Positions 7,820 through 52,799 of a DNA stretch of 64,000 nucleotides are shown here, piece by piece (position 1 is the stretch's first letter; each line of letters begins with the position of its first letter). The stretch spans positions 159,932 to 223,931 of the forward strand of contig CAVTPX010000005.1 in the NCBI GenBank assembly GCA_963736735.1, written 5' to 3'. Position numbers and translations under genes: made by a program. The notes below the pieces were generated by a model. It was not told the origin of the DNA, made no database searches, and saw nothing but the letters and a program-made list of their open reading frames with translations. This stretch comes from an uncultured Bacteroidales bacterium. GTDB lineage: Bacteria; Bacteroidota; Bacteroidia; Bacteroidales; VadinHA17.

Positions 7820-7840
7820 AAAGTGTATATTGTACATTTA
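7820..7840. promoter_or_regulatory. Candidate operator site A (AAAGTGT-N7-ACATTTA), ~100 nt upstream of the symporter/ara operon
   Basis: The sequence is aataAAGTGTatattgtACATTTa. It is one of six intergenic sites sharing GTGT-N7-ACA(C/T) with a conserved (A/T)AA prefix. Confidence 0.5.
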
Positions 7841-7938
7841 AAATTTGTTTTATCTTGCTAGCGAATTGTTATACTTTTAACAGCTGATCGTAGAATTCTT
7901 GGAGCTTACTATTATACAATAACCAAAAACTAACTAAT

Positions 7939-9820
7939 ATGCTCGCATTAGACTGGATTGTTCTCGGATTGTTCTTTTTGGGTTTGATTGGCATCATTGT
8001 CTGGGTGCTGATGCAAAAAGAAGCAACAACTACTGATTATTTTCTTGCTGGAAAGGATGCAGGATGGCTGTCAATCGGTTCCTCGATATTTGCCTCCAAC
8101 ATTGGTTCTGAGCATCTTGTGGGTCTTGCCGGCGCAGGTTTTATCAGCGGAATGGCAATGGCGCACTGGGAAATGCATGCCTGGTTGATTCTGGTTCTCG
8201 GATGGGTTCTTTGTACCTTTTTATGACAGGATCAAGGTGTTTACGATGCCTGAATTCCTCGAAAGAAGGTTTTCCTCCGGATCCCGCTCCGTACTTTCAG
8301 TAATTTCACTGGTATCTTATGTCCTTACGAAAGTTGCGGTAACGGTTTATGCGGGTGGTGTAGTCTTTAAGACCGTATTCGGAATTGATGAGATATGGGG
8401 ATATAGATTTCTTCTGGTTCAGTGCAGTGGGTCTTGTTGTAATCACAGGGTTATATACAATTTTTGGCGGAATGAAAGCCATATTGTACACCTCTGTTTT
8501 GCAGACACCGATACTGCTCATAGGTTCGATTGTTATTCTCGTAGTTGGCTTAATAAAAGTAGGAGGATGGGTTGAGGTTGAACGATTGGTAGGTTCCAAT
8601 ATTCATCTTGTCAGGCCTGCATCCGATCCTGAGTTCCCGTGGACTGGAGTATTGTTCGGATCAGCGATAATTGGCTTCTGGTACTGGTGCACCGATCAGT
8701 TTATTGTGCAACGTGTTTTGTCGGGCCGGAATCAGCAGCAAGCCCGAAGGGGAGCTATTCTGGCTGGTTATTTCAAACTGCTGCCGGTATTTATTTTCCT
8801 GATTCCCGGAATGGTTGCCTATGCATTGAATCAGAAAGGCTTGTTAATGGTTGAAAGCAGCGATTCAGCATTTGCCGCAATGGTTGCCCAGCTTCTTACC
8901 CGCCGGTGTGACTGGTGTTGTTGTCTGCGGGTTGCTGGCTGCTCTTATGAGCTCGCTGGCATCTCTGTTTAACTCCTCCTCTATGCTCTTCGTCGAAGAC
9001 TTCTATAAAAAGATGCGGCCTGAACAGGGATGAAAAACATTATCTGACGGTAGGCCGTATAGCTACAGCAGTAGTAGTTGTACTGGGTGTTGTCTGGATC
9101 CCGGTGATGCTTGGACTCGGGAAAGTCTTATATGAATACCTCCAGGGTGTCCAGGGATTGCTGGCACCGGCTATTGCATCAGTATTTCTGCTTGGAGTAT
9201 TCTGGAAGAAGATGAACGCCAAGGCTGCTCTTTGGGGAATGATTACAGGATTCAGCATAGGCATGTTCAGATTGATTTTAAACGTTGTATACGGAACCAA
9301 GGCAGCACTGATTACAGGTTGTGAGAAAGCTATCCAATCAATTAACAATGCAACCGATGCGTCTCTCAAGCAGGTACAGGAAGTGGTTCATTCCCTCAGC
9401 GATAAAATTACCACGGTGGCCGGTGCTGCAGGTACCCAGGCCAGAGAGTCAGTTGAGACTGCAAATGCATTGCTGTCAGCCGGTCTGACACCTGAATCAA
9501 AGAATCAGGCGGTACAGCTTATTTCACAGGTAAAAGAGAGCTATAACCAGATGTTCCTTGAGCAGTCAGGATTATTATTCCGGATAGCATCCATCAACTG
9601 GCTGCACTTCTGCGTAATTCTGTTTCTTATCTGTATTGCAACAATGGTTGGAATCAGCCTTACAACGGCTCCTCCGTCTGCATCAAATTTACAATATACC
9701 TACGCAGCCGCTACACTGGCTGATAAAAAGGCGACCAGGGCAAGCTGGAACAAATGGGATGTCATTCATACTGTCATAATATTAAGTATAGTAGTTGCTT
9801 TCTACATTTATTTCTGGTAG
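7939..9820 (+). pseudogene. Sodium:solute symporter (SSS/SGLT family), broken by four +1 frameshifts (or sequence errors)
   Basis: The collinear fragments are 7939..8226, 8237..~8400, 8385..~8895, 8851..9033 and ~9040..9820, in frames 1,2,3,1,2. Joined, they read as a typical SGLT: DYFLAGKDAGWLSIGSSIFASNIGSEHLVGLAGAG ... FTMPEFLERRFS ... WYWCTDQFIVQRVLSGRNQQQARRGAILAGYFKLLPVFIFLIPGMVAY ... PAGVTGVVVCGLLAALMSSLASLFNSSS ... LLAPAIASVFLLGVFWKKMN. Confidence 0.8.
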
Positions 9821-9857
9821 AAAAATCTGAATATTAATCATTAACTGTAATTAAAAG

Positions 9858-11348
9858 ATGAAAAACATAAATAGTGAACTTTGGTTTGTGACTGGCAGCC
9901 AGCATCTTTATGGTGAAGAAACACTTAAGCAGGTTGCGGCAGACTCAAAGGCTATTACTGCAGCTCTGGACAAAGCCGAAGCTATTCCCACAAAGGTTGT
10001 ATTCAAACCGGTACTTACAAACTCTGATGCAATTACTGCAATTTGCCTCGAGGCAAACAGCTCTCCGGAGTGTGCCGGTCTCATTGCATGGATGCATACC
10101 TTTTCTCCGGCAAAAATGTGGATTTCAGGCCTCAAAAAGCTCAACAAACCCTTGCTGCACTTCCATACCCAGTTTAACCGTGACATTCCATGGTCAGAAA
10201 TAGATATGGACTTCATGAACCTGAACCAGGCAGCACACGGCGACCGTGAGTTCGGTTACATATGTTCACGCCTTCGCATTGACCGAAAGGTGGTTGTCGG
10301 GCACTGGCAGGACAAGGAGGCACTGGCTTCAATAGGAGTGTGGGCACGTGCAGCAATGGCTGCACTTGACGCCCGCTCCCTTAAAGTAGCCCGCTTCGGT
10401 GATAATATGAGGGATGTGGCTGTAACTGAGGGAAATAAAGTCTCTTCTCAGATCAGGCTTGATTACCAGGTACAGGGTTATGGAGTTGGTGATCTTGCAG
10501 ATGCGGTATCAAAAGTGTCTGATAAACAGGTTGCACTTCTTGTAAAACAATATGGTGACGAATATAAAGCCTCAGCCAAAGTGCTCTCTGCAACCTCAGT
10601 AAAAGAGGCAGCCCGCATTGAGATCGGCCTTCGCACATTCCTGGATAATGGCGGATTCAAAGCCTTTACAACCACTTTTGAAGACCTGCACGGGATTGTT
10701 CAGCTACCCGGCCTTTCTGTTCAGCGCCTTATGGCTGACGGCTACGGCTTCGGCGCTGAGGGCGACTGGAAGACTGCAGCACTGCTTCGTTCAATGAAAG
10801 TTATGGCCAAAGGGCTTAAGGGAGGTACTTCATTCATGGAAGACTATACTTACCACCTTGATCCTAAGAAAATGGCTGTCCTCGGTGCTCATATGCTGGA
10901 AGTCTGCCCTTCTATTGCTGACGGAAAAACCTCTCTGGAGGTACATCCGCTTGGCATAGGAGGCAAAGATGATCCGGCAAGACTTGTCTTTAAGACGAAA
11001 CTAGGGAAGGCGCTGAATGCATCACTCATTGAGCTGGGTGACCGTTTCAGGCTGGTTGTTAATACCCTTGAAGTCATTGAATGCCCGCCTATGCCCAAAC
11101 TGCCTGTTGCAAGCGTACTTTGGAAACCACTGCCTGATATGAAGAGTGCCGCAACAGCATGGATCTATTCCGGCGGAGCCCACCATTCAGGATTCAGTCA
11201 GGCTCTTACTGCTGAGCACATGTCTGATTTTGCAATGATATCCGGAATTGAGTTTATTCTTATTGATGAGAATTGTGTTGTTGAAGATCTGAAGAAAGAA
11301 CTCAGGTGGAATGATCTCTATTATCACATCAATAAAGGTCTATGTTAA
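9858..11348 (+). CDS. araA: L-arabinose isomerase
   Basis: 496 aa. The N-terminus [20 protein letters not shown], the overall length and the context next to araD/araB are typical of AraA. Confidence 0.95.
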
Positions 11349-12046
11349 AGTTATATTCAAAACATCCTAAGCATTATCTGGCAGTTGACTGCATAATTTT
11401 CGGGTATGATCTGGCCGAGAAGGAGCTCAAACTCCTTCTTGTCAAGAGGAGTTTTGATCCTGCACGGGGCAAATGGTCCCTTTCCGGAGGTTTTGTCCAG
11501 GAAAGTGAAGGTCTTGACGATGCGGCCAGCAGGATTCTCTGCAGCCTGACGGGTATTTCAGACCTCTACATGCAGCAGCTTTACTCCTATGGCGAGATAG
11601 AACGTGACCCGGGGGCCAGGGTTATTTCTACTGCTTATTATGCCCTTATCGGCATTCATGAGATTGACAGGGATAACCAGGAAAAGAACGGGGCTCACTG
11701 GAGATCCATCTCCAATCTGCCTGACCTGATCTTCGACCACCGCAGAATGGTAGACAGGGCTCTGTGCGAACTGCTCACACTCGTAAAGGTCCAGCCTATC
11801 GGTTTCGAACTGCTTCCTGAGAAGTTCACCCTTGTCCAGCTCCAGGAGCTATATGAGGCCATCTATCAGAAAAAGGTTGACAAACGAAACTTCCGCAAGA
11901 AGATACTCTCAATGAACCTGCTCGAGAAACAGGATGATAAAGAGAAGGAGACATCAAAAAAGGGCGCATGGTACTACAGGTTTAATGAAGAAAAATACAG
12001 GCAGTTCACGAGGAACGGCTTCTTTTTTAACCTTGATGTAAACTGA
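11342..12046 (+). CDS. araR: Nudix-fold transcriptional regulator (NrtR/AraR-like)
   Basis: 234 aa. A degenerate Nudix box ([29 protein letters not shown]) is followed by a C-terminal winged-helix-like region ([33 protein letters not shown]). The gene is embedded between araA and araD, and its start overlaps the araA stop by 7 nt. This matches the architecture and context of the Nudix-type AraR described in Bacteroides. Confidence 0.8.
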
Positions 12047-12096
12047 AACGCCGGTGCCGCAGAGGCAGCCGGTACTGTGAACAAATACTTACTGAA

Positions 12097-12789
12097 ATGC
12101 TCGAAAAGCTTAAGGAAGATGTGTACAGGGCAAACCTTGAACTGGTAAGCCGCGGCCTGGTAATCATGACCTTCGGCAATGTAAGCGCCATTGACAGGGC
12201 CTCAGGTCTGATGGTTATCAAACCTTCAGGAGTTTCATATGATGAGATGACACCTGCTGACATGGTGGTTTCTGACCTTGACGGCAACGTTGTGGAGGGC
12301 ACACTGAAGCCTTCAACTGATGCCCCGACGCATGCCGCACTTTATAAGGTATTTCAGGGCATCGGAGGTGTTGTACATACCCATTCAGCCTATGCAACGG
12401 CATGGGCTCAGGCCGGGAAGAGCATCCCCTGCCTGGGTACAACTCATGCAGACAGTTTTTACGGGCCTGTTCCGGTGACCAGAAAACTCACTGAAAAGGA
12501 AATAAGTGACAGTTATGAGTATAATACGGGACTTGTGATTGCCGAGGCGCTTGAAGGAGTTGATCCGCTGTTTATGCCTGCTGTTGTTGTGCATTCTCAC
12601 GGCCCTTTCACCTGGGGTGAAACTGCTGCAAAAGCAGTATATAATGCGGTCATCCTTGAAGAGGTGGCGCGGATTGCGGCAATAACCGTTTCAATTTCCC
12701 CGACCGGGAATATTGACCAGGCACTGCTTAACAAGCACTTCCTTCGCAAACACGGCAGTAAAGCATATTACGGACAGAAGAATCATTAA
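12097..12789 (+). CDS. araD: L-ribulose-5-phosphate 4-epimerase
   Basis: 230 aa class II aldolase/adducin fold, with [25 protein letters not shown] and [14 protein letters not shown] typical of AraD. Confidence 0.95.
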
Positions 12790-12808
12790 TATACACGAGA
12801 TAACAGTT

Positions 12809-14476
12809 ATGAGCAAGTTTTCTATTGGAGTGGATTTCGGAACTCTTTCCGGAAGGGCAGTCATTGTAAACGTCGAAAACGGTGACGAGGTTGCCGTATC
12901 GGTCTTTGAATATCCCCACGGAGTAATGGATGAGAAATTGCCGGGCGGCACTTCGCTTGGGGTAGACTGGGCTCTTCAGCATCCACAGGATTATCTCGAT
13001 GTATTCAGGGAGACAATCCCTGCAGTTATGAAAAAGGCAGGAGTAAAAGCTGAAGATGTTATCGGTGTAGGAACTGACTTCACCGCCTGCACAATGCTTC
13101 CGGTGACTGCCGATGGAACCCCGCTTTGTTTTATTGATAAGTATAAGGCCAATCCTCACGCCTGGATAAAGCTCTGGAAGCACCATGCCGCACAGGATGC
13201 CGCAAACAGACTTAACTCAGTTGCCGAAGAACGCGGTGAGACCTTCCTGAAACGCTACGGCGGCAAGATATCGTCTGAGTGGCTGATCCCGAAAATAATG
13301 CAGATAGCAGACGAAGCGCCAGAGATTTATGATGCTGCGGACCGTTTCATTGAGGCAGCCGACTGGGTAATCTGGCAGCTTACCGGAAATGAGATGCGAA
13401 ACACCTGCACAGGAGGTTACAAAGCCATCTGGCATAAGCACGATGGTTATCCTTCAAACGATTTTTTCAAGGCACTGAATCCTAAAATGGAAAAACTCGC
13501 TGATGAGAAACTGTCACGTACACTCTACCCGGTTGGCACCAGGGCAGGGGGCATAACTCCGGAGGCGGCAAAACTGACAGGACTATTGGTGGGAACAGCA
13601 GTTGCAGTCGGCAATGTTGACGCACATGTCTCGGTACCGGCTGTTGGTATTACTTCAGCCGGAAAGATGCTTGCAATAATGGGAACATCAACCTGCCATA
13701 TGCTGCTCGGTGAGAAGGAAAAGACAGTTCCCGGCATGTGCGGGGTGGTTGAAGACGGCATAATTGAAGGCTTCTTCGGCTATGAGGCAGGCCAGAGCTG
13801 CGTTGGTGACCATTTCCAGTGGTTCGTTGAAAACTGCACACCTGCAGACTACAAAGCAGAGGCCGACAAGCGCGGTATCGACCTGCATGCACTGCTGACA
13901 GAAAAAGCCTCGGCTTTGAATCCCGGTGAAAGCGGACTTGTAGCCCTCGACTGGTGGAACGGCAACAGGTCAGTACTGGTGGATGTGGACCTTACAGGAA
14001 TGATCGTTGGTATGACCCTGGCAACAAAGCCGGAGGAGATTTACCGTGCACTCATCGAGGCTACGGCTTACGGCACAAAAATGATCATAGACACCTTCGA
14101 AGAGAACGGTGTTCCTGTCGATGAATACTACGCTGCAGGCGGGATAGCCGAGAAGAATCCTTTTGTGATGCAGATTTATGCAGATGTGACCGGCAAGGAG
14201 ATGAAGATATCGGGAAGTCCGCAGGCCCCTGCACTTGGCTCTGCAATGTTCGGAGCGCTGGCAGCCGGGAAAACAGCCGGAGGCTATGACAAAATAGAGA
14301 ATGCCGCTGCTGCAATGGCGAAGGTCAAACCCTTCTCCTACAAACCTGTACCTGCCAATGTGGAGGTTTACAAAAAGCTGTATGCAGAATATAAGATACT
14401 TCATGACTATTTCGGCCGTGGCGCCAATGATGTCATGAAGAGGCTCAAGGATATCAAAAAGGCAACGAGAGGATGA
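12809..14476 (+). CDS. araB: Ribulokinase (FGGY family)
   Basis: The ORF track begins at 12713, inside araD. The in-frame ATG at 12809 gives [20 protein letters not shown], the canonical FGGY/AraB N-terminus. The product of ~555 aa ends 1 nt into the next gene (ATGA overlap at 14473-14476). Confidence 0.9.
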
Positions 14477-16449
14477 GTAACCTGTTCCTAAAGCTTTCTG
14501 TTGTTCTTGTTTGTCTTTCCGGGTGTTCGGGAAAGCAGATCAGCACGACGACAACACAGGGCACTGAAGGTTATCCTATCACCCCGGTGCCTTTCACCGA
14601 GGTTAAAGTTACCGATGGTTTCTGGGCTCCGCGAATCGAGACTAACCGTTCGGTTACAATTCCCTTTGCAATGAACAAAAACGAAGAGACCGGCAGGGTT
14701 GATAATTTCCGTAAGGCGGCAGGGCTGATAAGCGGAAGATATGTAGGCCGCAGGTTCAATGATACTGACATTTATAAGGTTCTTGAGGGAGTAGCCTTCA
14801 CCCTGAGTGTAAGTCCTGACCCTGAACTTGAAGCCTCTGCTGATTCGCTCATTGCTCTCATTGCCCTTGCCCAGGAAGATGATGGTTACCTCTATGCTGC
14901 CCGCACGGCTAACCCTGACACCCCTGCTGCCGGAGCAGGCCGGGAAAGGTGGGTCAACCTTCAGGGGAGTCATGAACTATATAATTCAGGTCATCTCTTT
15001 GAGGCAGCAGTAGCATATTTTGAGGCAACGGGTAAAAGTCATTTTCTTGATATAGCAGTTAAAAATGCTGATTTACTGGTGCGTACCTTCGGACCTGAAA
15101 AACGCCGTGATGCACCAGGTCATCAGGTGGTTGAAATAGGCCTGGCAAAGATGTACCTGGCAACAGGTAAAAAAGAATATCTGGAACTGGCTCGATTCTT
15201 TCTTGATGAAAGGGGGAGTCAACATGCAAGTGAACCTTATCCGGAGGGTCCGTTTGCAATGTATAACGGACTTGAATACAAACAGGATCACCTTCCTGTA
15301 AGACAACAGACAGAAGCTGTCGGACACGCTGTAAGGGCAACATATATGTATGCCGGCATGGCTGATGTTGCCAGCCTGCTTGATGACAATGAATATGATA
15401 AAGCAATTGGTACAATCTGGGAAAACGTTGTTGGCAAAAAGATGTATCTCACCGGGGGCGTGGGAGCCCGTAGTGGTACTGAGGCATTTGGGGATAACTA
15501 TGAACTGCCTAATGAGAGCGCTTATTGCGAAACCTGTGCGGCAATAGGGAATGCTTACTGGAATCACCGGATGTTTCTCAGCCATGGAGACGGAAAATAT
15601 ATTGATGTCCTTGAAAGGGTCATGTATAATGGGCTTGTTTCAGGCGTCAGCCTGAGCGGAGATAGGTTTTTCTATCAGAATCCGCTCGCATCATTTGGAA
15701 ACTATAGTCGCAGCGAGTGGTTCGATGTCTCATGCTGCCCCGGTAATATTGTCAGATTCATTCCTTCTGTACCCGGATACATATATGCCAAAAGAGATAA
15801 TGAGCTATTTGTCAATCTTTTTGTTGATAGCCAGACAGAGACTGAGCTGACAAATGGCAGCGTAAGAGTCACGCAGAAAACTAAGTACCCTTATGACGGT
15901 CTGGTAAACATTGTGGTAGAACCTGCCTTCAGTGACAATATGACCCTGAGCCTCCGGCTTCCCGGTTGGGCTACAGGTAATGCTGTCCCTTCAGACCTCT
16001 ATAGTTTTAACAGTGATGTTACAGGTACAATCTCACTCACTGTCAATGGCAGGAAGCAGGCGATAGAACCGGAGAATGGTTATATAAGGATTGACCGTCG
16101 CTGGAAAATGGGCGACGAAATAGTACTTGAACTACCGATGCCCGTACTTGAGGTAACCTCAAATCCGGGTGTTGTTGAAAATGAGGGCCTTGTAGCCTTG
16201 CAGCGAGGTCCGCTTGTGTATTGTCTTGAAAGTATTGACAATACTGCACCACTTGGAGATATTGAATTGGGCGATGCCTCTGACTTCAGAACCCGCTTTG
16301 ATCCTGCACTGCTTAACGGAACTGTTATTATTGAAGGAGAGTGTCGTGACTCTGCAGGTACCGTTACAAGTGTTGCAGCAATCCCATATTGCCTCTGGGC
16401 AAACAGGGGCGAGAGCCAGATGGCAGTCTGGGTAAAAAGTTCAAAATAA
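14473..16449 (+). CDS. GH127 (DUF1680) beta-L-arabinofuranosidase-like lipoprotein, copy 1
   Basis: 658 aa with a lipoprotein signal (LSGCSG). Motifs [30 protein letters not shown] (Glu-x-Cys) and VSCCPGNI (Cys-Cys) match the Zn-ligand/nucleophile pattern known from GH127 HypBA1. Confidence 0.9.
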
Positions 16450-16456
16450 TAGTTTT

Positions 16457-18421
16457 ATGAAAAATAGAACTCTATGGATTATCATGTTTACGGTACTGTT
16501 TTCAGCATGCGCCAGGAATCATGAACAAAAGCCGGTAAATAATGCATGGTTGTTAACGCCTGAACTGACTTCGGTGAGTGTGAATGATAATTTCTGGACA
16601 CCCCTTATAGAACGCAACCGGACAGCCACAATACCTTATACTTTCGGTAAATGTGAAGAGACCGGACGCATTGACAACTTCGCGATAGCCGGAGGACTCA
16701 TGAAGGGCAAACACACAGGGGAACGGTACAATGACTCGGATGTATTCAAAATTATAGAGGGTGCCTGTTATTCACTCATTGAAACACCCGATCCTAAGCT
16801 GCGCAGCTATGTGGACAGCCTTGTTACATTGATTGCAGCAGCACAGGAAGATGACGGTTACCTTTATACAACCCGCACTATTGATTCGGTAAACATGGCT
16901 CCCGGTGCGGGCAGGGAAAGATGGATCGATGAACGTGTCAGCCATGAACTCTACAATGTGGGACATATGTATGAGGCTGCTGTTGCTCATTACCAGGCGA
17001 CCGGGTCGAATGTCTTCCTGGATGTAGCGCTTAAGAATGCTGAACTGGTTGCGAAGGAGTTTGGCTGGGGTCTGAGGGAGATTGCTCCAGGGCACCAGGA
17101 AATCGAGATAGGACTTATAAAACTCTATGATCTGACCGGCGATAAGCAGTGGCTGGAGCTGGCACAGTTCTTTATTGATGTACGCGGCAGGAAGGGAGAA
17201 TATGTAAGGCATCCTGAGAAGTCGCGGTTTGAAGTCTATAATGACTCCATTTATCTTCAGATGCATAAGCCCGTTCTTGAACAAACGGAAGCAGTTGGCC
17301 ATGCAGTCAGGGGTGCCTACATGTACACGGCAATGGCTGATCTTTCACGGGCAACAGGTGAAGACAAATACCTTGAAGCATCTCAGCGGATTTGGGATGA
17401 TGTAACAGCAGGCAAGATATACGTTACCGGAGGAATTGGATCAAAGGAATTTGGTGAGGCCTTCGGGGAAGCTTATGAGCTGAACAACATGGATGCATAT
17501 ACAGAAACCTGTGCATCAGTGGCAAATGTATTCTGGAATCACAGGCTCTATACTGCAACAGGAGATGCAAAGTACCTTGATGTTCTTGAAAGGACTCTCT
17601 ATAACGGACTAATCTCCGGAATCGGGACTGACGGATGCAGTTTTTATTATACTAATCCCCTGGAGTCGGATGGCCGTTTTGAACGCGCCGGTTGGTTCGA
17701 CTGTTCCTGCTGTCCCGGCAATGTAGCACGCTTAATGCCTGCAATGAAACAGTATATATGGTCTGTTTCCGATCAGGGTGTGAATGTTAACCTCTTCATC
17801 GGATCTGTTGCAAAACTGAAGACAGGTGCAGGCGATGTTGAACTGAAACAGACTACCGGGCTTCCCTGGAAGGGTGATGTGACAATAAATGTCGATCCTG
17901 CAGTTAACAATACCGCGTTCCGTCTGAGTTTACGTATTCCGGCATGGACAGGTGATGTCCCGATGGCAGGAGGACTTTACAGGTATATTACACCGGCAAA
18001 GGAAAAACCAGTGCTGAAAGTCAACGGGAAAAAGATCGCAATTAATGTACAGAAGGGCTTTGCAGTCATTGACAGATCGTGGAAAAGGGGAGATGTTGTC
18101 ACCCTGTCGCTCCCGATGGAACCCCGTTTTATAATTGCCAGGGATGAGGTAAAAGCTGACAGCGGACGGGTTACAATTGGTGCAGGCCCCCTTGTTTACT
18201 GTATCGAGGAAGTTGATAACGGTAAGATAAGCGATCTGCAAGTGGATCCGGCAACAGTTGTTGTAAGCGGTTTCGACGAGGCAATATTGGGCGGCATCGG
18301 CAAACTAACTTTTGTAGCTGAGAAAGCTGACGGCTCTCAGAAGGAGGTGAAGGCAGTGCCTTACTATTCCTGGGCCAACAGGGGCAAGGGAGAGATGCAG
18401 GTTTGGATGAAAATAAAATAA
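16457..18421 (+). CDS. GH127 beta-L-arabinofuranosidase-like lipoprotein, copy 2
   Basis: 654 aa paralogue of copy 1, with HELYNVGHMYEAAVAHYQATG, YTETCASVA and CSCCPGNV. It starts 7 nt after copy 1. Confidence 0.9.
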   Translation: MKNRTLWIIMFTVLFSACARNHEQKPVNNAWLLTPELTSVSVNDNFWTPLIERNRTATIPYTFGKCEETGRIDNFAIAGGLMKGKHTGERYNDSDVFKIIEGACYSLIETPDPKLRSYVDSLVTLIAAAQEDDGYLYTTRTIDSVNMAPGAGRERWIDERVSHELYNVGHMYEAAVAHYQATGSNVFLDVALKNAELVAKEFGWGLREIAPGHQEIEIGLIKLYDLTGDKQWLELAQFFIDVRGRKGEYVRHPEKSRFEVYNDSIYLQMHKPVLEQTEAVGHAVRGAYMYTAMADLSRATGEDKYLEASQRIWDDVTAGKIYVTGGIGSKEFGEAFGEAYELNNMDAYTETCASVANVFWNHRLYTATGDAKYLDVLERTLYNGLISGIGTDGCSFYYTNPLESDGRFERAGWFDCSCCPGNVARLMPAMKQYIWSVSDQGVNVNLFIGSVAKLKTGAGDVELKQTTGLPWKGDVTINVDPAVNNTAFRLSLRIPAWTGDVPMAGGLYRYITPAKEKPVLKVNGKKIAINVQKGFAVIDRSWKRGDVVTLSLPMEPRFIIARDEVKADSGRVTIGAGPLVYCIEEVDNGKISDLQVDPATVVVSGFDEAILGGIGKLTFVAEKADGSQKEVKAVPYYSWANRGKGEMQVWMKIK

Positions 18422-18431
18422 TAAACTGATA

Positions 18432-20849: not shown

Positions 20850-20942
20850 GAAGGCTTCATCCCCTTATTTCAAACGTGTGCAAAAAAATGTTGAAAAACA
20901 CTATTGCTGTTAAGAAAATATCATAACTTGCATTTGAAAGGA

Positions 20943-20963
20943 AAAGTGTAAAAATTACATTAA
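20943..20963. promoter_or_regulatory. Candidate operator site B upstream of SusC-like 1
   Basis: The sequence is gaAAAGTGTaaaaattACATTAa, with the same GTGT-N7-ACAT spacing as site A. Confidence 0.45.
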
Positions 20964-21007: not shown

Positions 21008-21028
21008 AAAGTGTACAAAAAACACGTA
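21008..21028. promoter_or_regulatory. Candidate operator site C upstream of SusC-like 1
   Basis: The sequence is aataAAGTGTacaaaaaACACGTA. It lies ~100 nt upstream of the ATG at 21125. Confidence 0.45.
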
Positions 21029-24100: not shown

Positions 24101-24257
24101 AAAACAGGTTGACCTGACTTTTACAGGTACCAACCTTCTGACCTGGACTCCCGGATTCAGACTCGGCGGTGACCCTGAAGGATTCAACTCAGGTGTTGAC
24201 TTTGGCGCATATCCGATGATGAAACGTTTCACATTCGAGGTAAGGCTATTGTTCTAA
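21125..24257 (+). pseudogene. SusC/RagA-family TonB-dependent transporter 1, one +1 frameshift near 23160 (or a sequence error)
   Basis: Fragments 21125..23212 (frame 2) and 23109..24257 (frame 3) are collinear. The N-terminus is TITGTVVDESGETLPGVTIVIEGTTRGVTTDFDGKFSI (CarboxypepD_reg) followed by VVVGYGVQKKETVVGAVSQV (the SusC plug entry). The C-terminus ends in a barrel strand, ...FTFEVRLLF. Confidence 0.85.
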
Positions 24258-24276
24258 ACAGGTAAAAACTACGAAA

Positions 24277-26031: not shown

Positions 26032-26061
26032 TAATCAAAATCTGGTTCAATTCTCAGAAAG

Positions 26062-29000: not shown

Positions 29001-29110
29001 TATTTTCCGGTCTGAAAAAATACAGTGTGGATCCTGAGAATATAACTGCAGGTATTAACGGCTATCCCCTTTTCAGGACAGTCACTGCGGGAGTTTCCTG
29101 TAAATTCTAA
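26062..29110 (+). pseudogene. SusC/RagA-family TonB-dependent transporter 2, +1 frameshift near 26185 (or a sequence error)
   Basis: The signal peptide MKNMKNKIFRTVLMFCALFSIFASSTAYPQERQISTVTGQ is encoded from 26062 in frame 1 and stops at 26197-26199. The protein continues in frame 2 (ORF 26189..29110) with VITDDAQPVQGVLVKAFNTNKVAFTDLQGNFSV, then a plug and a barrel ending ...TAGVSCKF. Confidence 0.8.
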
Positions 29111-29127
29111 TGTTAAAAAGCGAAACT

Positions 29128-31296: not shown

Positions 31297-31336
31297 AATG
31301 AGTTTACCAATAATGGGAAACGATAAAAAAGGAACT

Positions 31337-32859: not shown

Positions 32860-32880
32860 TAAGTGTAAAATAAACACATA
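32860..32880. promoter_or_regulatory. Candidate operator site D upstream of GH51
   Basis: The sequence is gaaTAAGTGTaaaataaACACATA. It lies 20-40 nt upstream of the ATG at 32900. Confidence 0.5.
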
Positions 32881-32899
32881 ATATCAAACCGGAAATATC

Positions 32900-35247: not shown

Positions 35248-35283
35248 AAACAAATACTACTAAATATCCAAAAACCAGGTATC

Positions 35284-37998: not shown

Positions 37999-38016
37999 AC
38001 TGTAATAATTAATATC

Positions 38017-38053
38017 GGGGCGATCAGCCGGCTGGCAGATCGCCCCTCTTTTT
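38017..38053 (+). terminator. Rho-independent terminator after the GH127/146-like gene
   Basis: ggggcgatc ... gatcgcccc (9-bp stem) followed by tcttttt. Confidence 0.7.
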
Positions 38054-38069
38054 CCTAATAATTAAAATC

Positions 38070-43639: not shown

Positions 43640-44567
43640 CTACTGTTTCTTTCCGCTTGTGTTTTTGCTGATCATGTCAGCCTGCGGAACCGCCAGGAGG
43701 AATGATACAACATTCCTTGTGGCTGCTGATATTCACCTTGACAGTACCGACGTGAGGGCGGCAGTGATCGATTCGGTTATTGACCTTATGAATTCTGTGA
43801 AGGGAACACCGGTAACGGGTGTCGCGGGTAAATCTTATAATCCTTTCGGTCTTTTTGTGATCGGCGATCTTACTGATTCCGGGAGTGATACTCAATGGGA
43901 TCAGTTCACCTCGCTCTTCGGGCTGAACGGTGAAAAGGCTTTGGCTATGCCGGTATATGAGACCTTCGGTAATCACGACGGAAACAGTGGGGGTGTTGTA
44001 AGGGAGGGGATAACAGCCAGGAATTCTGCAAGAAGCACAAAGATTAATATTTCTTCGAACGGCATCCACTACAGCTTTGACAGGGGTGGTATTCACTTTG
44101 TGGTACTGGGCAGTTATCCGGGAGGCGTGTGGGATCCGGAATGCGGGTGGTGCCACTATTTTAAAGAATCATTCAGGGAATCTGAGATGAGCCTGGAGTT
44201 CCTTAAAAGCGACCTGGCCATGAATCTCCGCAACAGAAGACAACCCGTTGTGCTCTTCTTTCACTACGGCTGGGATGATTTCAGCCTTCTGTGGTGGACC
44301 GGTAAGGAACAGGAGGCATTTGCCGAAGCCATAAAAGAGTATAATGTTGCAGCCATATTTCACGGGCACAACCATTCTGCCGCGGCATATAAATGGAACG
44401 GCATAGATGTCTTCAGCAGCGGGTCACCGCAGAGAGGCTCATCAATTGGCAACTTCCTCATTGTGAGGTCCGATGGCGACAGCCTCTCGGTAACCTCCGT
44501 TGAAAGGAAAAAGAGAGGTACCGCTGGGCACTGTTTCCCTTTCAGGAAAATAATTGCTGACAGGTAA
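43608..44567 (+). CDS. Calcineurin-like metallophosphoesterase lipoprotein
   Basis: The motifs are FLVAADIHLD, GDLTDSG, GNHD and FHGHNH. The ATG at 43608 precedes a lipoprotein-type signal (FLLIMSACG). The ORF-track start at 43587 is a TTG inside the preceding gene. Confidence 0.8.
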   Translation: MIRRLRCLPISYCFFPLVFLLIMSACGTARRNDTTFLVAADIHLDSTDVRAAVIDSVIDLMNSVKGTPVTGVAGKSYNPFGLFVIGDLTDSGSDTQWDQFTSLFGLNGEKALAMPVYETFGNHDGNSGGVVREGITARNSARSTKINISSNGIHYSFDRGGIHFVVLGSYPGGVWDPECGWCHYFKESFRESEMSLEFLKSDLAMNLRNRRQPVVLFFHYGWDDFSLLWWTGKEQEAFAEAIKEYNVAAIFHGHNHSAAAYKWNGIDVFSSGSPQRGSSIGNFLIVRSDGDSLSVTSVERKKRGTAGHCFPFRKIIADR

Positions 44568-46928
44568 AGCCTAAAGCTTTACTGTCAGCTTCTTGCCGTG
44601 TGTATTTTACCTTTTTTGTAACTGATCCTGTCACTTTTTCGATCACAAGCTCGCGACTTACCGGCAGGTTGACGGCGCCTTCAGGAGCATCCGGGAATAT
44701 CGTCAGTTTCCTGCTTTTGTCGTTCCATCTGAATGTGGTCCATCTGCCAATACCTTCAAGGTATTGCTGGCTTATGCCGTCATCTTCGTACATCGTGAAT
44801 TTACCGTCGGCGCCGGGATAGATTTTTATTGTTGTCGGACCGCTTACTTTTTCTCCGGTATACTGTCTGACAGGATCAATGGGGATTATTGCGCCTGCCC
44901 TTACAAATATTGGCATTACAGACAGGTTCACATCCCTGGTTACATCTTTTCCGCCGGAATACTCGGTATTATTCCACCAGTCGTACCACAGTCCGTCAGG
45001 AAGATAAACTGTCCGTGTCTTTGCGCCCTTTTCAAATACAGGTGCAATGAGCATGTCCGGGCCCCACATAAACTGATTGCCGAAGCCCTGCAGCCTTCTC
45101 ATCTTCAGGATATTGCAGCCACATTGCACGCATCAGGGGCATCCCGGTGGCATGCGCTTCCCAGGCGAGGGTATAAGTGTAGGGGAGAAGCTGGTAGCGA
45201 AGCTCGGCGTATTTCTTTACTACCGGTTCGATCAGCGGGTTATTCATCTCCGACACAAGCGGATTGCGTTTGTCAGTATCCCTTGCCGGGGTGTTGCGGT
45301 TATTGTCTTCCCTGGGGCCCATGTCAGACAGTCCCCATCCCCAGGGCAGAGCCGTGAACCATGTGCGGCCGTGCGACCTGAATGATCCGCAGAAGGCACC
45401 GAACTGGAACCAGCGGGCATAGAGCTCGCCCGTCTTTTCATTATTGGGGTAGAAGCCTCCTATGTCAGATCCCCAGTAGGGCCCGATGCTCAGGGAGTGG
45501 TTTATGCCTACGGCAATCTGTCCCTCGAGAGTCTTCCATGATGTCTCAGTATCACCTGACCAGACCCAGCCGCCCCACTGGGCTATTCCCAGGTGGCCGT
45601 TACGGTGCAGGCTCCACGGACGGGTGTCAGGGGTGGTGGAGAGAGGTCCCTGGTAGTACAGCTGGTGCCTCTTGATTCTTTCAAAGAGATTGAACCAGTC
45701 GCCCTCATCAGGCCAGAAGGCGTCAATGCCTTTATCCATAAGCCCGACATGCTGCTGCCAGTAGTTCTGAATGTGGGATGAATCAAGCACTTCTCCGGGC
45801 AGGGCAGGGATGGTGCCGTGAAGGGTGGGGAGCCTGTCGCGGTCCCAGGGGACCATGTGTACAACAACTTTTACATTACGGTCATGGAGATCGGACAGAA
45901 CCTTTTCAGGCTCTCTTTTGAATACATCCGGGTTAAAATCAAATGATGGCTGCATTGTATTCCATCCTCGCGGGCAGAAGCCGGTGCCGAGGTAGATGAC
46001 GGCATCAATTGGAATGTGCTTTACCCTGAAGGTGTCAACAATTCCTATTAACTGATTTTCATCGTCAAGGGTGCGGTGCGACTGCATGTACCCGAGAGAC
46101 CAGAGTGGCGGCATCACTGCCGGACCGCTGACAAGGCTCAGTTCCTTCATGAATGTGGCAGGGTTGTGGGCGTCAAAGACGAAGATGTCAAGGAGACCCT
46201 TTACATAATCTTCTGCCGGTGGCAGTCCTTTCCCCTGGTTGAGTCCCTGGTTGGCAACATTCTGCACAGTTGTCTGCGGTTCACGGTCCAGGGGTATGAA
46301 GAGGCCTTTGTCCTCCGGGCGCAGGTCAATCTCGCCCCAGGGGGTTGCAACGAACAGGGCCCAGCCGTCGGTACCTATCATAAGCGCTACAGGGTTTCGT
46401 GAGCCGTAGGCGTCGCTCTGCCAGCGCGGCACCATTGCATGGTAGCTGCCGTTGCGGTCATACTGTATCGGTGCTGTACGCCAGTCGGTGCCGCGCTCGG
46501 GACGCGGTCCTCCTTCACCCATGCCAAGCACGGGATCACTGCTCTTCGCAAAGGAGAAGCCCCCTTCGTCATTGAAGACTTATTTCCTGCACTTCTTTGC
46601 CTGCTGCGTTGGTTATCCTTATCCTGAGAGGGTCTGCGGTGACTTCGACATTCAGACCGGCAATGCGTTTGGTGACAGGATGTGATATCTCCTCAAGTAC
46701 AATAGCAGGTTCGGCATATTTCCTGTCAGCAAGGGCGGGGGTGAATGGCAGGTCAGCAGCGAAGTCAGCGGGCTTTAAGGTTATGCGCACTGAATTCTTT
46801 TCTGCCTCGCGTATCTCAAGCTTCCCGGGCTTCCCGTTAACTGTGATTTTCTGAGCACTGACGGTTGCCGGACCGGATGCAAGGGTAACAGTTAAGATGC
46901 AGGTAAGAACTGATTTAAGAATGTGCAT
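44542..46928 (-). pseudogene. GH31 alpha-glycosidase (alpha-xylosidase/alpha-glucosidase-like), two +1 frameshifts (~46578, ~45087), or sequence errors
   Basis: The fragments are 46569..46928 (signal peptide MHILKSVLTCILTVTLASGPATVSAQ), 45032..46531 and 44542..45129. The GH31 signatures are GIDAFWPDEGDWF (nucleophile-Asp region) and GGWVWSGDTETSWKTL (W-x-GD-x-x-S-W). Confidence 0.8.
44556..44589. terminator. Hairpin between the convergent metallophosphoesterase and GH31 genes
   Basis: gctgacaggtaaagc-ctaaa-gctttactgtcagc forms a ~14-bp stem with one bulge. Both convergent ORFs end inside it, and no strong T-tract follows. Confidence 0.4.
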
Positions 46929-47120
46929 TTTGATATCGGGTTTATTTTTGGATCTGTTCGTAGGGTGCGTTAAAATAATAAGTTGCCGGGCACTCTCCAA
47001 TAATTTTTAGTTAATAAACCTTGTTTAATGCTCAGAAACATTGCATAACGGTTGAGGGGCAACCGAAAATCTGTTAATTTCGCAGAAAGAGATAAAAAGC
47101 TGATAAATCAAAATTATTTT

Positions 47121-48254: not shown

Positions 48255-48262
48255 CTCTCACC

Positions 48263-49189: not shown

Positions 49190-49827
49190 TCAGTTTTAAT
49201 CTTAAGATAGACTTCAAATTGGTTGTCAGTTCTTATAATATCTAACTCATGTTTGTCATTATATAATAAGTAAAGGCGTTGTTTTATTAAATCTATACCC
49301 AATCCACTTTTTTCTTGGTTAAAAGTTTTTGAATTATCGAAATAATTACGACAAGTGAAGGATATTTCATTCCCAGTTGTTTCGATGATAATGTTAATCG
49401 CATCTTCAATCTTTTTATTTGTAGAATGCTTAAATGCATTTTCAATAAACGGGATAAAAATTGCAGGTGCAATCATTAGCCTTTCATTTTCTAAGGAAAT
49501 TGTGAGGTTCACATATCTTTCATTTGCTGTTCTTATTTTTTGGAGTTCAATATATTTTGTAATGTATTCCAGTTCAGTAGTCAATGGTATAAGATTAGAA
49601 GATGCTTCATAGAGCATAAACCGCATTATTTCTGAAAGTTGTTTTAAATACTTTGACGCAGTTTTAGGCTCCTTCTCAATTAATACATCTATATTATTTA
49701 TTGTATTAAAAAGAAAATGTGGATTAATCTGGGCTTTTAGAAGTGCCAATAAAATATTCTGCCGGCTATTTGTCTGCAAGATGGCACAATGTGTCATTAA
49801 TTTATCAACCACGCCAAAGGCTGACAA
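49186..49827 (-). pseudogene. LytS/YehU-type sensor histidine kinase lacking its N-terminal membrane sensor region (5'-truncated remnant)
   Basis: LKAQINPHFLFNTINNI (the His_kinase H-box) and the HATPase region (FIENAFKHS...GLGIDLIKQRL) are present. Only one TM-like segment remains upstream before an in-frame stop, and only ~125 nt separate it from the next gene. The stop overlaps the response-regulator start (ATGA-type, 49186-49189). Confidence 0.65.
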
Positions 49828-49953
49828 GACTGTTTGTACAATTAAAGATAAACAGAAGAACCCGAAGATTGGGTTAAATCTGAGTTAAAAAGAGAGAAGG
49901 ATATGTTAATTATGGAGACTGTCGGGTTTTGTACTTTAGTTTTTGTCTGAAAT

Positions 49954-52717
49954 CTATTCTTTCGATGGCTTAAGAGTGACGGTTGCACCCTTTTCTTTCA
50001 GTGGAACTACAAACTGCCCCCTGTTGTTGGCTGACAGTGAGGCGGTATTATATTTTCGTGCCGTCTCTTCCCTGCCTGTTGTTGTAACATGCATGTAAGC
50101 CTCCGGAGTCATGGAGTCCGCTGCCTCGAACACGATTTTTACTGCCCCCGTTGCAGTGTTATAGGAAACACTTTTGAACCGGCCTGCGTCAAGTGTCAGC
50201 CACAGTCCTGCAGGTGCAACATACACCCTTGACTGAGCTGCTGTTGTCAAGATCTGTTTTCACCCATTTTCCCTTTTCAGTACAGTTTCCTCCGAAAGAG
50301 AGCCAGCCGAACTCTTCATTATAGACGAGGTAAGTTGCTGTGTTCAGGGCATAACCGAGGAATCCGGTGCCGTAATCCCCGGTTATACCGTCATTCTTCA
50401 GGGTGGATGGGAATGAATGGAAAGCGGCAGGTGCAAAACCGTCCTGTGTAATATTCGAGATGGCTCCCATAACTCCGCCGTAACCGACGCGGAGAAGGTA
50501 GAAGTCGGACGGATATTCGCGGTACTGATTCAGGACCGGGATGGCATTGAGGGCCGAACCGTAATGGTGTATCATTCGCTCAAAGCGCGACAGCTTGCCG
50601 GCGAAGAGGAAGTCCCAGAAACGACGGGCGCTGCCGTTATAGCCCCAGTGAGGGACAGTAGGCATGTATGCCAGGATGGCATTCAGGGTTACAAGCGCTT
50701 TGTCATCGAGTCCGAAATATTTTGCCCACATGTAAACCTCTTCCTGACCGGTCGAGTCCCAGGGCATCTCACTTCCAAAGGGATATTTCAGGAGCATCCA
50801 GTGGTCAACCCTTACTTTCATGGCGGTTTCCATTTCTGATGCCATTTTATCCATTCCCTCAGCCTTGAGGTCATTCAGGATAAGTATAAAAATGGTGCCC
50901 TCCATCTGCCCGAACTGGGCATAATAAGGTGCCTGCTTTATCATTGCCATGGTGGTATGGAATGCATTTTCGAGATACCACTGCCATTCCTGCTGTGAGG
51001 TAAGACCCTGGTAATTGCGTGCCATCCGGTACATGACCCAGTGGGCTGCTGCCACGTGCGGGTAGTTGTAGGAACGGCCGACAGAGTTTGTCTCTTTGGT
51101 GTTCCATGAGGGGAAACTGCCGTTTGCGGCAAACCGGATGTTCGTGTCATAGGTCCCGGCGGGCATCGAATCAGGCATGTAAAAGAACATGCTTTTCTTT
51201 ACGCCGTATTTTTTATCTCCCTCACTGTACTGTATGCCGCCCCAGAGAGTCTGGTTCACAAAGTCTTCAAGCTTTTTCACCTCGGCCGGGTCAGGCATCA
51301 CAATCTGTTTCATTATGGCTCCCAGCCAGCTTCCGGCACCACCCTCATCACTCAGGCCGGCGATCCAAACCCGCCTGTCCTGTTTCACCTGTTCCTTCTT
51401 TTCGTAGTCATAGGTAATCACCGACGGAGCTCTGCCAAAAGGATCATTTTTGTCGTCAAACCACTGCTCGGTGGTGAGGAACTTACCGTAAGAGGCAATA
51501 ACCTCTTTCTCCGGGGATATGATCTTGTAGCTTACGGTCTGGCTTAGCCCGTCTTCATATTCGACTGTCAGCCTGGCCCTTCCCCATATTTTACCTTTTA
51601 CATCATAGACTTTCCATCCGTGGTCATTGGTGCCGGCGTCACTGATCTCAAAAGCGCCTGACGGTTCAACCTTTAAATTTCTGACAGCCTTATCATATTT
51701 CAGGAAGAGCTTTGCATTGACATCCATGGGAACCACATAACCGGGGATACCCACGGCAACCGGACGATTTGCCTGTTCAAGTGCATCTTCAATCTCCCTG
51801 ACAGAGCCGGCAATGAGGAATTTTACACCGTAGCTTCTTGATTCTCCGGGCTTGATTATTGCAGAGGTGGGCTCATTCCACTGTTCAACACCTTTCCAGG
51901 CAGTCTCGGCGTAAGATCTGCTGTGAACCATCCATTCATGCAATCCTTCGAAGGTGTAGCCGCTTGGAAGAGGATCATCAGTCAGAGGGCGCCATGCCTC
52001 AAAGGGTGTTTTTCCGTAGGGTACAACCACCATAGCCTTGCCTTCACCGTGAAGCCTTACAACCTGAAGGTACCCGGCATCAGCGCCGATATACGGATCG
52101 AAGAATACGTTTTCCGCATGGGCTTTGTCAAGAGACTTACCATTGAAGTTATTATTGAAAACCATGGGAATACCCAGGGCTCCTATTTCGACTGAGCTGG
52201 CAGATTTGTTCGTGACCTCAAAACGCAGTACAATGTTTTCGCCCTCTTTCTCCCAGTACCTTATTATTCGTACAGGTATTTCTGCCGGCAATGTTTTTGC
52301 GAGGTCGGCGGCAGAAAGTACATCCGGGTCATCCGATTTTACAGGATCAATGTCAACTCTTGCTTTCGCGGTTGAATAATAGGTCCATCCGGTATCACCT
52401 GCGCTGCGCAGGCCGAGGTTAATGTCGCCCAAATGGTAAAAACCGTTTTTGTCTCGCTCTGCCAGCCTGTCGCCCGGGGTGAAATCAAACGGTTCACTGT
52501 CATTTGTCCGCAGGGATGCCACCGTTTGTGTGGAGTTCAGCAGCCCCAGCTGTAACAGGGGAGTCTTATACTCTGTGGTGCCTTTTTCAATGCCGAGTGT
52601 CGGTGACCCCAGATCACGCCTGTTCCGCTGTTGGCCCGCCATATCTGCAGGTGAAGAGATTGCCAGGGTGAATAACAACGCCGTAATTGTAAGTTTAAAC
52701 CTTATCATGCTTTTCAT
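49954..52717 (-). pseudogene. Distant third paralogue of the 38070/40874 family (possibly DUF5695-like), one +1 frameshift near 50240 (or a sequence error)
   Basis: The fragments are 50189..52717 (842 aa, signal peptide) and 49954..50250. It is collinear with the ~930-aa proteins: RSYNYPHVAAAHWVMYRMARNYQG aligns with RSYDYPHIIMLYYHMYQVAKMYPE, and FGWLSFGG aligns with FGWISYGG. It has a similar beta-rich C-terminal tail. Confidence 0.7.
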
Positions 52718-52778
52718 AATTTGATTAATTTGAAACTGTGGCTCAATAAATAACCAATATGTCTGTAAATGGTTAAAT

Positions 52779-52799
52779 AAAGTGTCTAATATACACTTT
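52779..52799. promoter_or_regulatory. Candidate operator site F, a perfect palindrome AAAGTGT-ctaatat-ACACTTT, 62-82 nt upstream of the 52717 start
   Basis: This is the only site with perfect 7-bp arms. It has the same GTGT-N7-ACAC geometry as sites A-E. Confidence 0.55.

Follow-up and report, generated by a model that had tools for sequence, protein, structure and literature searches.

The same palindrome recurs before several gene clusters in the window analyzed here (the whole stretch of DNA, 64,000 nucleotides), and the question that it raises is which protein reads it and which genes are controlled in this way. Five sites, A, B, C, D and F, had been located in an earlier note on this DNA; their coordinates and sequences were confirmed, as was the position of a sixth site, E, which is assigned to the same putative regulon and lies outside the span 7820–52799. 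All six are recorded without a strand. Site A (7820–7840) precedes araP-araA-araR-araD-araB and three GH127 genes, and sites B (20943–20963, promoter-proximal) and C (21008–21028) stand in tandem before SusC-1, 65 bp apart from start to start. Site D (32860–32880) lies 19 nt before a CBM4_9-GH51 gene, site F (52779–52799), a perfect palindrome with 7-bp arms, lies 61 nt upstream of a minus-strand DUF5695 gene, and site E is found at 62295–62315. The six sites begin 40–182 nt upstream of a start codon; published AraR sites are found from -4 to -364. The ATAA prefix, described earlier as almost invariant, is present in five of the six sites but not in B. The degenerate pattern of the earlier note gave five strand matches at four sites (F on both strands) against 0.00 in shuffled sequence, and site B departs from it at the last arm position only.

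The comparison with the curated AraR motif, set beforehand as the decisive test, was positive. The operator of BtAraR (BT0354), established by EMSA and crystal structure (Chang, 2015, PMC4666351; PDB 5BS6/5DD4), reads AAAGTGT-N7-ACACTTT, and binding to it is abolished by L-arabinose (PMC4666351). The published BtAraR operators AAAGTGTtACTtTTACACcca, AgAGTGTAttTGaTACACcaa and AAAGTGTAaAaaagACACTTa share with the window sites the GTGT-N7-ACAC geometry and the A-rich flanks (PMC4666351). A PWM was built solely from 37 published AraR 21-mers of Bacteroides and Prevotella, with no window sites in training, and the scan covered one 64-kb window of the genome. The top six loci were F (23.6 bits), D (22.8), B (20.7), A (19.0), E (18.5) and C (15.2), all above the training minimum of 11.5 bits. 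A coding locus at 7218–7238 ties the weakest site at 15.2 bits, and the following locus reaches only 10.8 bits. This coding match, in which one arm reads CCAC and not ACAC, was not seen elsewhere and was judged to be due to chance.

The background frequency of the motif was also measured, and matches were enriched in intergenic DNA. Six intergenic matches of at least 14 bits were observed, against 0.06 expected from dinucleotide shuffles of the intergenic DNA only. The core AGTGT-N7-ACA occurs at eight distinct loci in the window, six of them intergenic, and intergenic DNA makes up 7.9% of the window. In 909 kb of related loci, the density of matches of at least 16 bits was higher outside long open frames than within them, by a factor of 34 or more.

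The palindrome had been attributed to the product of the Nudix-type gene at 11342–12046 (plus strand), and this attribution is supported, at the level of sequence, by the match to the curated motif, the AraR architecture and the conserved pocket. The gene, araR, encodes a predicted NrtR-family repressor combining a Nudix-like domain and a winged helix (Pfam NUDIX, residues 13–138; NrtR_WHD, 154–214; AraR_C, 151–223; all above cut-offs), and the protein matches BtAraR (PDB 5BS6) at E 1.3e-75 with 54% identity. An exact-protein look-up in a collection that does not contain the window itself returned no identical entry. In BtAraR, L-arabinose is bound by Arg34, Arg86 and His131 and by a hydrophobic cage of Tyr5, Phe36, Gly47, Gly48, Phe49, Val92 and Phe129 (PMC4666351), and all ten residues are identical in the window protein. 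Lys179, Arg180, Asn181, Lys184, Lys204 and Arg205, which contact bases, are reported to be invariant among AraR orthologues (PMC4666351); the first five are kept here and Arg205, in the minor-groove wing, is conservatively replaced by Lys, with all of the GTGT-reading residues retained. Ser163 of BtAraR is Val in this protein. The Nudix box is degenerate, reading G50-x5-E56-x7-R64 followed by ILCSL rather than EUxEE (RILCSL in place of REUxEE), and AraR proteins without two or three of the Nudix glutamates have been described (PMC4666351).

The ADP-ribose-responsive NrtR of NAD metabolism, for example that of Shewanella oneidensis, is alike in its Nudix-like sensor, its C-terminal winged helix and its action as a dimeric, ligand-released repressor, and NrtR structure 3GZ5 matches the window protein at E 5.4e-20. 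Unlike in NrtR, nucleotides are shut out of the pocket, whose lining consists of the AraR arabinose residues, the DNA motif and the regulon differ, and the NCBIfam NtrR equivalog gives 125 bits, below its cut-off of 400.

Taken together, these data indicate, with a probability of roughly 0.9, that the six sites are operators of an L-arabinose-responsive, NrtR-family repressor AraR encoded at 11342–12046. By homology with BtAraR, a dimer would bind each 21-bp semi-palindrome, its recognition helices reading GTGT from two major grooves while its wings occupy the A/T-rich flanks, and L-arabinose in the dead Nudix pocket would rotate the winged-helix domains and release the DNA. At least four units would be held off in this way: araP-araA-araR-araD-araB with its three GH127 genes, a unit with two susCD pairs, a GH51-GH127-DUF5695-DUF5695 unit and the DUF5695 gene that stands apart; site E may head a fifth, small unit. 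Arabinose freed from a glycan and imported by AraP would then derepress them, and it would be the sole local signal.

The gene content of these units was read from Pfam matches; all lie on the plus strand except the separate DUF5695 gene. Operon 1 (7939–20849) contains araP, araA, araR, araD, araB and the three GH127 genes; araP starts at 7939 and carries four 1-nt insertions relative to locus L004, as seen in an indel comparison. Operon 2 (21125–32698) encodes SusC1 (frameshifted), SusD1, SusC2, SusD2 and a BT_3987-like surface protein, and operon 3 (32900–44567) encodes CBM-GH51 (frameshifted), GH127, two DUF5695 proteins and a metallophosphoesterase. A conserved -7-like box, TATCTTGC (7851–7858), lies 10 nt past the end of site A, site B begins 11 nt after another conserved one, TAACTTGC (20924–20931), and site E begins 10 nt after a perfect TAnnTTTG box (62277–62284). 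The boxes abutted by the sites, of the form TAnnTT(T/G)(G/C), deviate slightly from the Bacteroides -7 consensus, and this geometry fits promoter occlusion; the predicted overlap with promoters is deduced from these boxes. Sigma-70 promoter and terminator scans gave counts at chance level and were set aside.

Sites A, B/C, D and F are kept before orthologous genes in related metagenomic genomes, with diverged flanks. The gene order of operon 1 is repeated in five related loci (L004–L008), and an identical or near-identical counterpart of site A precedes araP in L004, L006, L007 and L008; the stretch AAGTGTAT..ACATTTAA of this site is invariant in alignment A3. L004, L006 and L008 also have a SusC gene downstream of the ara operon. 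Site B is conserved in L006 and L008 as AAAGTGTAAAnnTTACATTAA, and in both loci it is accompanied by a counterpart of site C with the same ACACGTA arm (18.4 bits in L006 and 24.4 bits in L008), at a spacing of 66 and 64 bp, respectively. For site D, a counterpart of at least 16.6 bits was found 40–100 nt upstream of the orthologue in eight of ten metagenomic loci, the orthologues having 50–87% protein identity. At site F, alignment A5 shows AGTGTATATTAGACACTT unchanged across four lineages whose flanks cannot be aligned, and a site precedes the orthologue of the DUF5695 paralogue in L001, L003, L080, L081, L084, L085/86 and L087. A contig search with the DUF5695c query returned three loci. In L002, L082 and L083 this orthologue lies inside another operon with no site before it; these loci are uninformative rather than contradictory.

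This conservation bears directly on whether the sites lack a regulatory role and simply reflect chance in A/T-rich promoter sequence or the copying of a dispersed repeat. The intergenic DNA is indeed A/T-rich (40% GC), and the sites had been found by eye in intergenic DNA only. However, composition-matched intergenic shuffles yield 0.06 matches against the six observed, the flanks are unrelated between sites, and the sites occupy orthologous positions where the neighboring intergenic sequence no longer aligns. This reading has a negligible probability and is refuted as far as sequence analysis allows. Binding of the palindrome by a different factor, such as a paralogous NrtR-type regulator (XylR, for example) or a Crp-like global regulator, with the AraR match being coincidental, is very improbable too. 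Bacteroidetes do possess paralogous NrtR-family sugar regulators (PMC4666351), but an AraR-specific matrix from other genera separates the window loci cleanly, the window regulator has the AraR arabinose pocket rather than a generic NrtR one, and araR is encoded within the first target operon. A scan of the window for the Crp-like motif of Bacteroides, TATGTTnTAnAACATA, did not find it: there was one match at three mismatches, against three expected.

A weightier objection, though still an unlikely one, is that AraR binds the sites as a fine-tuner only and that the main switch of the PUL units is a polysaccharide sensor encoded outside the window, an HTCS or another regulator. HTCS genes normally adjoin their PULs. 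The Nudix-type gene had been described earlier as the sole regulator of the cluster, and this held among ORFs of at least 150 aa between 7.9 and 47 kb: besides araR, no HTCS, SusR, ECF-sigma, AraC, LacI, GntR or other DNA-binding regulator was found. Nor was any HTCS-like ORF found in the 64-kb window, where the ORFs of at least 150 aa were all assigned to other families. The PUL has no adjacent polysaccharide sensor gene, whereas in Bacteroides the susCD operons targeted by AraR usually have an HTCS gene next to them. An additional point against mere fine-tuning is the pair of tandem operators, kept at 64–66 bp and placed right behind the promoter box of SusC, which suggests that control is tight and not marginal. 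On the other side, the visible part of the genome amounts to 64 kb, and every AraR-targeted susCD operon in B. thetaiotaomicron also has an HTCS (published Table S1). The weight of AraR at the present PUL is uncertain because in that species AraR alone did not set arabinan-PUL steady-state levels: in an araR mutant the PUL mRNA differed in its kinetics and not in its steady state (PMC5061871). The same mutant derepressed araM about 30-fold (PMC5061871), which speaks for the AraR reading.

The preferred reading, that of an AraR regulon, was also compared with the known BtAraR system, which shares the protein architecture, the arabinose contacts, five of the six base contacts and the 21-bp semi-palindrome. 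In both systems araR lies within the ara operon, which implies autoregulation, together with araA, araB, araD and an arabinose transporter gene, and among the known or predicted targets are GH51 arabinofuranosidase genes and an operon with two susCD pairs. A GH127-like gene within the ara operon is also common to both; the "X" of araMPRDAB-X-abf3 is presumably BT0349, of family GH146. The order is araP-A-R-D-B-GH127x3 here and araMPRDAB in the known system. The tandem sites stand before SusC here and before the ara operon in the known system, and they are 65 bp apart here compared with 63 bp in B. vulgatus and B. dorei. Further differences are Lys in place of Arg205, the absence of an adjoining HTCS, the three DUF5695 genes and probably also a small transcript. 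The host differs too: it falls near Prolixibacteraceae, in an uncultured environmental lineage of Bacteroidales, and is not a Bacteroides or Prevotella. The AraR motif and mechanism of gut Bacteroides and Prevotella thus appear to carry over unchanged to environmental Bacteroidales, and therefore published matrices should be usable for annotating arabinose regulons in such metagenome-assembled genomes.

The earlier note proposed that the Nudix regulator controls a whole PUL and an unlinked enzyme, and it overrated the novelty of this. Only the DUF5695 target and the absent local HTCS go further than earlier work: AraR control of susCD loci and GH51 genes had been predicted, and in B. thetaiotaomicron AraR had been shown to bind and act at the arabinan PUL (Ravcheev, 2013, PMC3878776; PMC4666351; Schwalm, 2016, PMC5061871). 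The modestly new points are the lineage, the sensor-less locus, which provides an example of a PUL without an adjacent polysaccharide sensor, the presence of DUF5695 in the regulon and the candidate small transcript of site E.

DUF5695 is an entirely uncharacterized family with thousands of members, and its place as a conserved predicted member of the AraR regulon is itself modestly new. Three such genes fall in the putative regulon, two in operon 3 and one behind site F (50189–52717, minus strand; Pfam DUF5695, 1227 bits). The product of the latter was earlier read as an 842-aa protein; this is a truncated reading, the C-terminus being lost to a frameshift, and the orthologues have about 904–926 aa. 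In an AF2 model of P0121, 94% identical to this paralogue, much of the helical region is at pLDDT below 50, and the closest fold by Foldseek was the PL27 L-rhamnose-α-1,4-D-glucuronate lyase BACCELL_00875 (PDB 5NO8; E 1.4e-21, TM 0.70 on the target, about 790 columns, 14% identity). Both have an N-terminal β-sandwich followed by a helical barrel region, and DUF5695 has an additional C-terminal β domain. The sequence search against PDB chains gave no match, there is no NCBIfam model for the family, and nothing on its function was found in the literature. The predicted fold is thus PL27-like, and the family is not filed as PL27 because the resemblance is one of fold only, with no sequence match. 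PL27 acts on side chains of arabinogalactan-protein (PMC8377490). Predicted AraR control and the PL27-like fold point experimenters to arabinose-containing glycans as substrates.

A broader and more tentative proposal, less likely than not, is that in this lineage a complete system for degrading glycans (two SusCD pairs, GH51, four GH127 and three PL27-like DUF5695 enzymes) has a Nudix repressor that senses a monosaccharide as its only local switch, and that AraR also gates a conserved, terminated small RNA of about 125 nt at site E. Such a system would plausibly be aimed at β-L-arabinofuranoside-rich plant glycoproteins or arabinogalactan proteins. If true, the AraR regulon would gain a riboregulatory arm, and DUF5695 would be placed in a functional context for the first time.

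From sequence, the target of site E appears to be a small transcript with a terminator and not the methyltransferase gene. This candidate arabinose-regulated small RNA (62290–62415, plus strand) would be about 125 nt long and end in a hairpin and a T-run. An Rfam search assigned it to no family, the best match having E 0.012, far below the gathering score, and the E region gave no blastn match in the set of loci without L080–L087. Site E is conserved in L080, L081, L084 and L085/86, the E elements of L080–L087 having been located by PWM and by eye. The transcript has a conserved core, AGACAGTTTAGGTTT..TAGGGGTTA, and compensatory changes were observed in its terminator hairpin in six sequences.

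The palindromic sites that the earlier note had picked out by eye, A (7820-7840), B (20943-20963), C (21008-21028), D (32860-32880) and F (52779-52799), were all verified in the window in both position and sequence, and site E was confirmed at 62295-62315. The degenerate pattern proposed for the five retrieved four of them, F on both strands, and was absent from 100 shuffles; site B departs from it solely at the last arm position. In the window, eight distinct loci carry the core AGTGT-N7-ACA, six of them in intergenic DNA, which makes up 7.9% of the sequence. Since no background frequency had been measured for that proposal, a test independent of the window was run with a log-odds PWM, built from the AraR sites that Chang et al. 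2015 list in their Table S1 (37 distinct 21-mers; PMC4666351) and scanned on both strands. The top six loci in the window coincided exactly with sites A, B, C, D, F and E (15.2-23.6 bits); a coding locus at 7218-7238, lacking the ACAC arm, equaled the weakest of them at 15.2 bits, and the following locus reached 10.8. At 14 bits or more, six matches were observed, whereas shuffling the intergenic DNA alone (5 kb), with dinucleotide frequencies preserved, yielded 0.06. Across all 83 fetched loci (909 kb), the density of matches of at least 16 bits was 0.36 per kb in DNA outside long open frames versus 0.011 per kb within them; of the nine matches counted as "inside", at least five actually lie just upstream of start codons. 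These densities and shuffle counts therefore speak against a motif equally frequent in coding DNA, the outcome that the earlier note had named as damaging to its reading, and the observation of repeated palindromic sites is confirmed.

Judged by sequence, the repeated motif is the known AraR operator, a conserved 21-bp semi-palindrome (PMC4666351). The comparison with the curated motif showed that the window sites share the GTGT-N7-ACAC geometry and the A-rich flanks with the published operators of BtAraR (BT0354), the Nudix-type arabinose repressor of Bacteroides thetaiotaomicron. In EMSA, BtAraR shifted oligonucleotides with AgAGTGTAttTGaTACACcaa, AAAGTGTtACTtTTACACcca and AAAGTGTAaAaaagACACTTa; binding was abolished by 0.01-0.5 mM L-arabinose and only partially impaired by D-xylose, at 0.5 mM or more (PMC4666351). 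In the crystal complex, GTGT is read by Lys179, Arg180 (intercalating), Asn181 and Lys184, and Lys204 and Arg205 make wing contacts (PMC4666351). The product of the gene at 11342-12046 has a NUDIX plus NrtR_WHD/AraR_C architecture and matched BtAraR (PDB 5BS6) with an E-value of 1.3e-75 and 54% identity across the aligned region. All ten arabinose-pocket residues are kept, as are the base-contacting residues with one exception among six, Lys for Arg205; in addition, Val replaces Ser163, which makes a van der Waals contact. Its Nudix box, as read from the translation, is degenerate, with R-I-L-C-S-L replacing R-E-U-x-E-E, a described trait of AraR proteins (PMC4666351). The proposal that the palindrome is the operator of this AraR-like gene is supported by this homology and by the PWM of published sites.

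The putative AraR units comprise, on the plus strand, 7939-20849 (the ara genes and three GH127), 21125-32698 (two SusCD pairs and a BT_3987-like protein) and 32900-44567 (GH51, GH127, two DUF5695 and a metallophosphoesterase) and, on the minus strand, 52717-50189 (DUF5695). By homology, apo-AraR dimers would sit on the operators and be released by L-arabinose, and the operator positions are compatible with repression by occlusion. Autoregulation of araR is expected, because the gene lies within the first target operon. Conserved TAnnTT(T/G)(G/C) boxes follow site A at a distance of 10 nt and precede sites B and E by 10-11 nt. These boxes resemble the Bacteroidetes -7 element (consensus TAnnTTTG) and are putative promoters rather than mapped transcription starts. 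The boxes at 20924-20931 and 7851-7858 (TAACTTGC and TATCTTGC; alignments A2 and A3 around the sites) read TAnnTTGC versus TAnnTTTG in Bacteroides, and may represent a lineage-specific -7 variant. Among the ORFs of at least 150 aa from 7.9 to 47 kb, no HTCS, SusR, ECF-sigma/anti-sigma pair or other DNA-binding regulator besides AraR was detected. At 48.3-49.8 kb lie a fragment of a LytS-type kinase and a fusion of receiver and thioredoxin domains, both devoid of a DNA-binding domain.

Control by a Nudix regulator beyond the catabolic genes, which the earlier note had put forward, is not new, as it has been published for B. thetaiotaomicron AraR. For the BT0365-60 operon, which includes two SusCD pairs and Abn1, control by AraR was predicted in 2013 (PMC3878776), AraR binding to it was shown in 2015 (PMC4666351), and AraR action on the arabinan PUL in vivo was shown in 2016, when an araR mutant exhibited roughly 30-fold derepression of araM on glucose and altered arabinan-PUL kinetics (PMC5061871). 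GH51, GH43, GH2 and GH97 genes are also listed regulon members (PMC4666351). The window differs from the published AraR systems in lineage and in its PUL without an adjacent HTCS, whereas each susCD target listed in Table S1 is accompanied by an HTCS (PMC4666351). Moreover, tandem operators precede SusC in the window but the ara operon in the known system, and DUF5695 is a conserved putative target in this lineage that lies beyond the published regulon. The reading supported by these sequence comparisons is that the operator is the known AraR one, occurring here in a new lineage whose regulon is probably modestly larger.

Closest to the window are MAGs of uncultured Bacteroidales (DUF5695 protein 97% and 87% identical); the relatives that bear names, at some 60% identity, come from Prolixibacteraceae and allied groups, for example Aquipluma, Maribellus, Roseimarinus and Mangrovibacterium. 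In related metagenomic loci with 79-95% identical AraR, the order araP-araA-araR-araD-araB-GH127 is kept, usually with a SusC gene next. A site precedes araP in all four loci that include its upstream region (L004, L006, L007 and L008); in the site A alignment AAGTGTAT..ACATTTAA is invariant and the rest of the spacer is poorly conserved. Paired sites before SusC, 65 bp apart in the window, are spaced by 66 and 64 bp in L006 and L008, with the same arm variants as B/C, and paired sites 114 bp apart were found in L004 and L005. For site D, a site of at least 16.6 bits was detected 40-100 nt upstream in 8/10 metagenomic loci (CBM-GH51 protein 50-87% identical). For site F, the DUF5695 orthologues of L001, L003, L080, L081, L084, L085/86 and L087 (72-97% identity) carry a site 57-115 nt upstream, and 18 bases, AGTGTATATTAGACACTT, are invariant across four lineages with unalignable flanks. 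No site was found upstream of the orthologues of L002, L082 and L083, as expected for genes internal to other operons. Some relatives carry extra tandem AraR-like sites absent from the window, 119-121 bp apart or directly adjacent (L004, 319-339 and 438-458; L024, 1675-1816 and 10822-10863), and therefore the number of operators per promoter differs among lineages. Just upstream of site A (4173-7731), the window has a 257-aa ORF without a Pfam match and, after it, the gene of a TonB-dependent receptor that is extended at its N-terminus; in L006-L008 this place is taken by an OmpR-type two-component pair divergent from araP.

Site E, outside the span of the other five, is kept in L080, L081, L084 and L085/86. 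A perfect TAnnTTTG box lies 10 nt before it, and a hairpin with a T-run, showing compensatory changes across relatives, lies about 70 nt downstream, immediately preceded by an invariant single-stranded block, AGACAGTTTAGGTTT..TAGGGGTTA. This element occupies 62277-62415 in the window, ~4715-4850 in L080, ~4640-4780 in L081, ~4900-5045 in L084 and ~4400-4540 (minus strand) in L085. A second -7-like box follows the hairpin, ahead of the RsmF-like gene. The simplest reading is that AraR at site E gates a small transcript, a candidate RNA of ~125 nt encoded ahead of the RsmF-like gene and distinct from it, rather than regulating the methyltransferase. No Rfam match was obtained for this transcript; L087 has the 3' module and lacks a strong AraR site. 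Some 22 nt upstream of the promoter box of site E, at 62241-62254 in the window (ATGACAATAATCAT), there is another conserved palindrome, ATGAcAnnTGTCAT, which is perfect in L085 and occupies the same position in L080, L081, L084 and L085; a further regulator may bind there. The spacer that separates the cation-efflux gene from site E contains a 56-bp tandem repeat (61867-62061; 3.5 copies, 97% identity), followed by a 15-bp short repeat (62082-62117); in L085 and L086 the matching spacer contains different units, repeated and with hairpins.

The three DUF5695 paralogues of the window (38070-43639 and 50189-52717) are mutually 21-22% identical, with a predicted fold of beta-sandwich, helical barrel and beta-sandwich. 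No literature on DUF5695 function, NCBIfam model or sequence relative in the PDB was found. The AlphaFold2 model of P0121, which is 94% identical to the protein at 50189-52717, had a mean pLDDT of 76.8 and a pTM of 0.80, with several helical segments below pLDDT 50. Its nearest structure by far was the PL27 L-Rha-alpha-1,4-GlcA lyase BACCELL_00875 (5NO8; E 1.4e-21, TM 0.70 on target, 14% identity), and PL27 activity on arabinogalactan protein has been described (PMC8377490). This PL27-like fold, together with four GH127 genes and GH51, suggests the hypothesis of a plant arabinoside-rich glycan as substrate. In many loci (L033, L043, L044 and L080-L087), DUF5695 genes recur beside genes for GH51, GH127, GH3 and aldose epimerase.

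Finally, araP (7939-9820) differs from its L004 counterpart by four 1-nt insertions, and SusC1 (21125-24257), GH51 (32900-35247), GH31 (44542-46531), the C-terminus of DUF5695c (49960-52717) and RsmF (62384-63835) are also split by single-base frameshifts. The orthologues of these genes are intact in short-read contigs, and the frameshifts suggest an error-prone long-read assembly rather than pseudogenes or gene decay.
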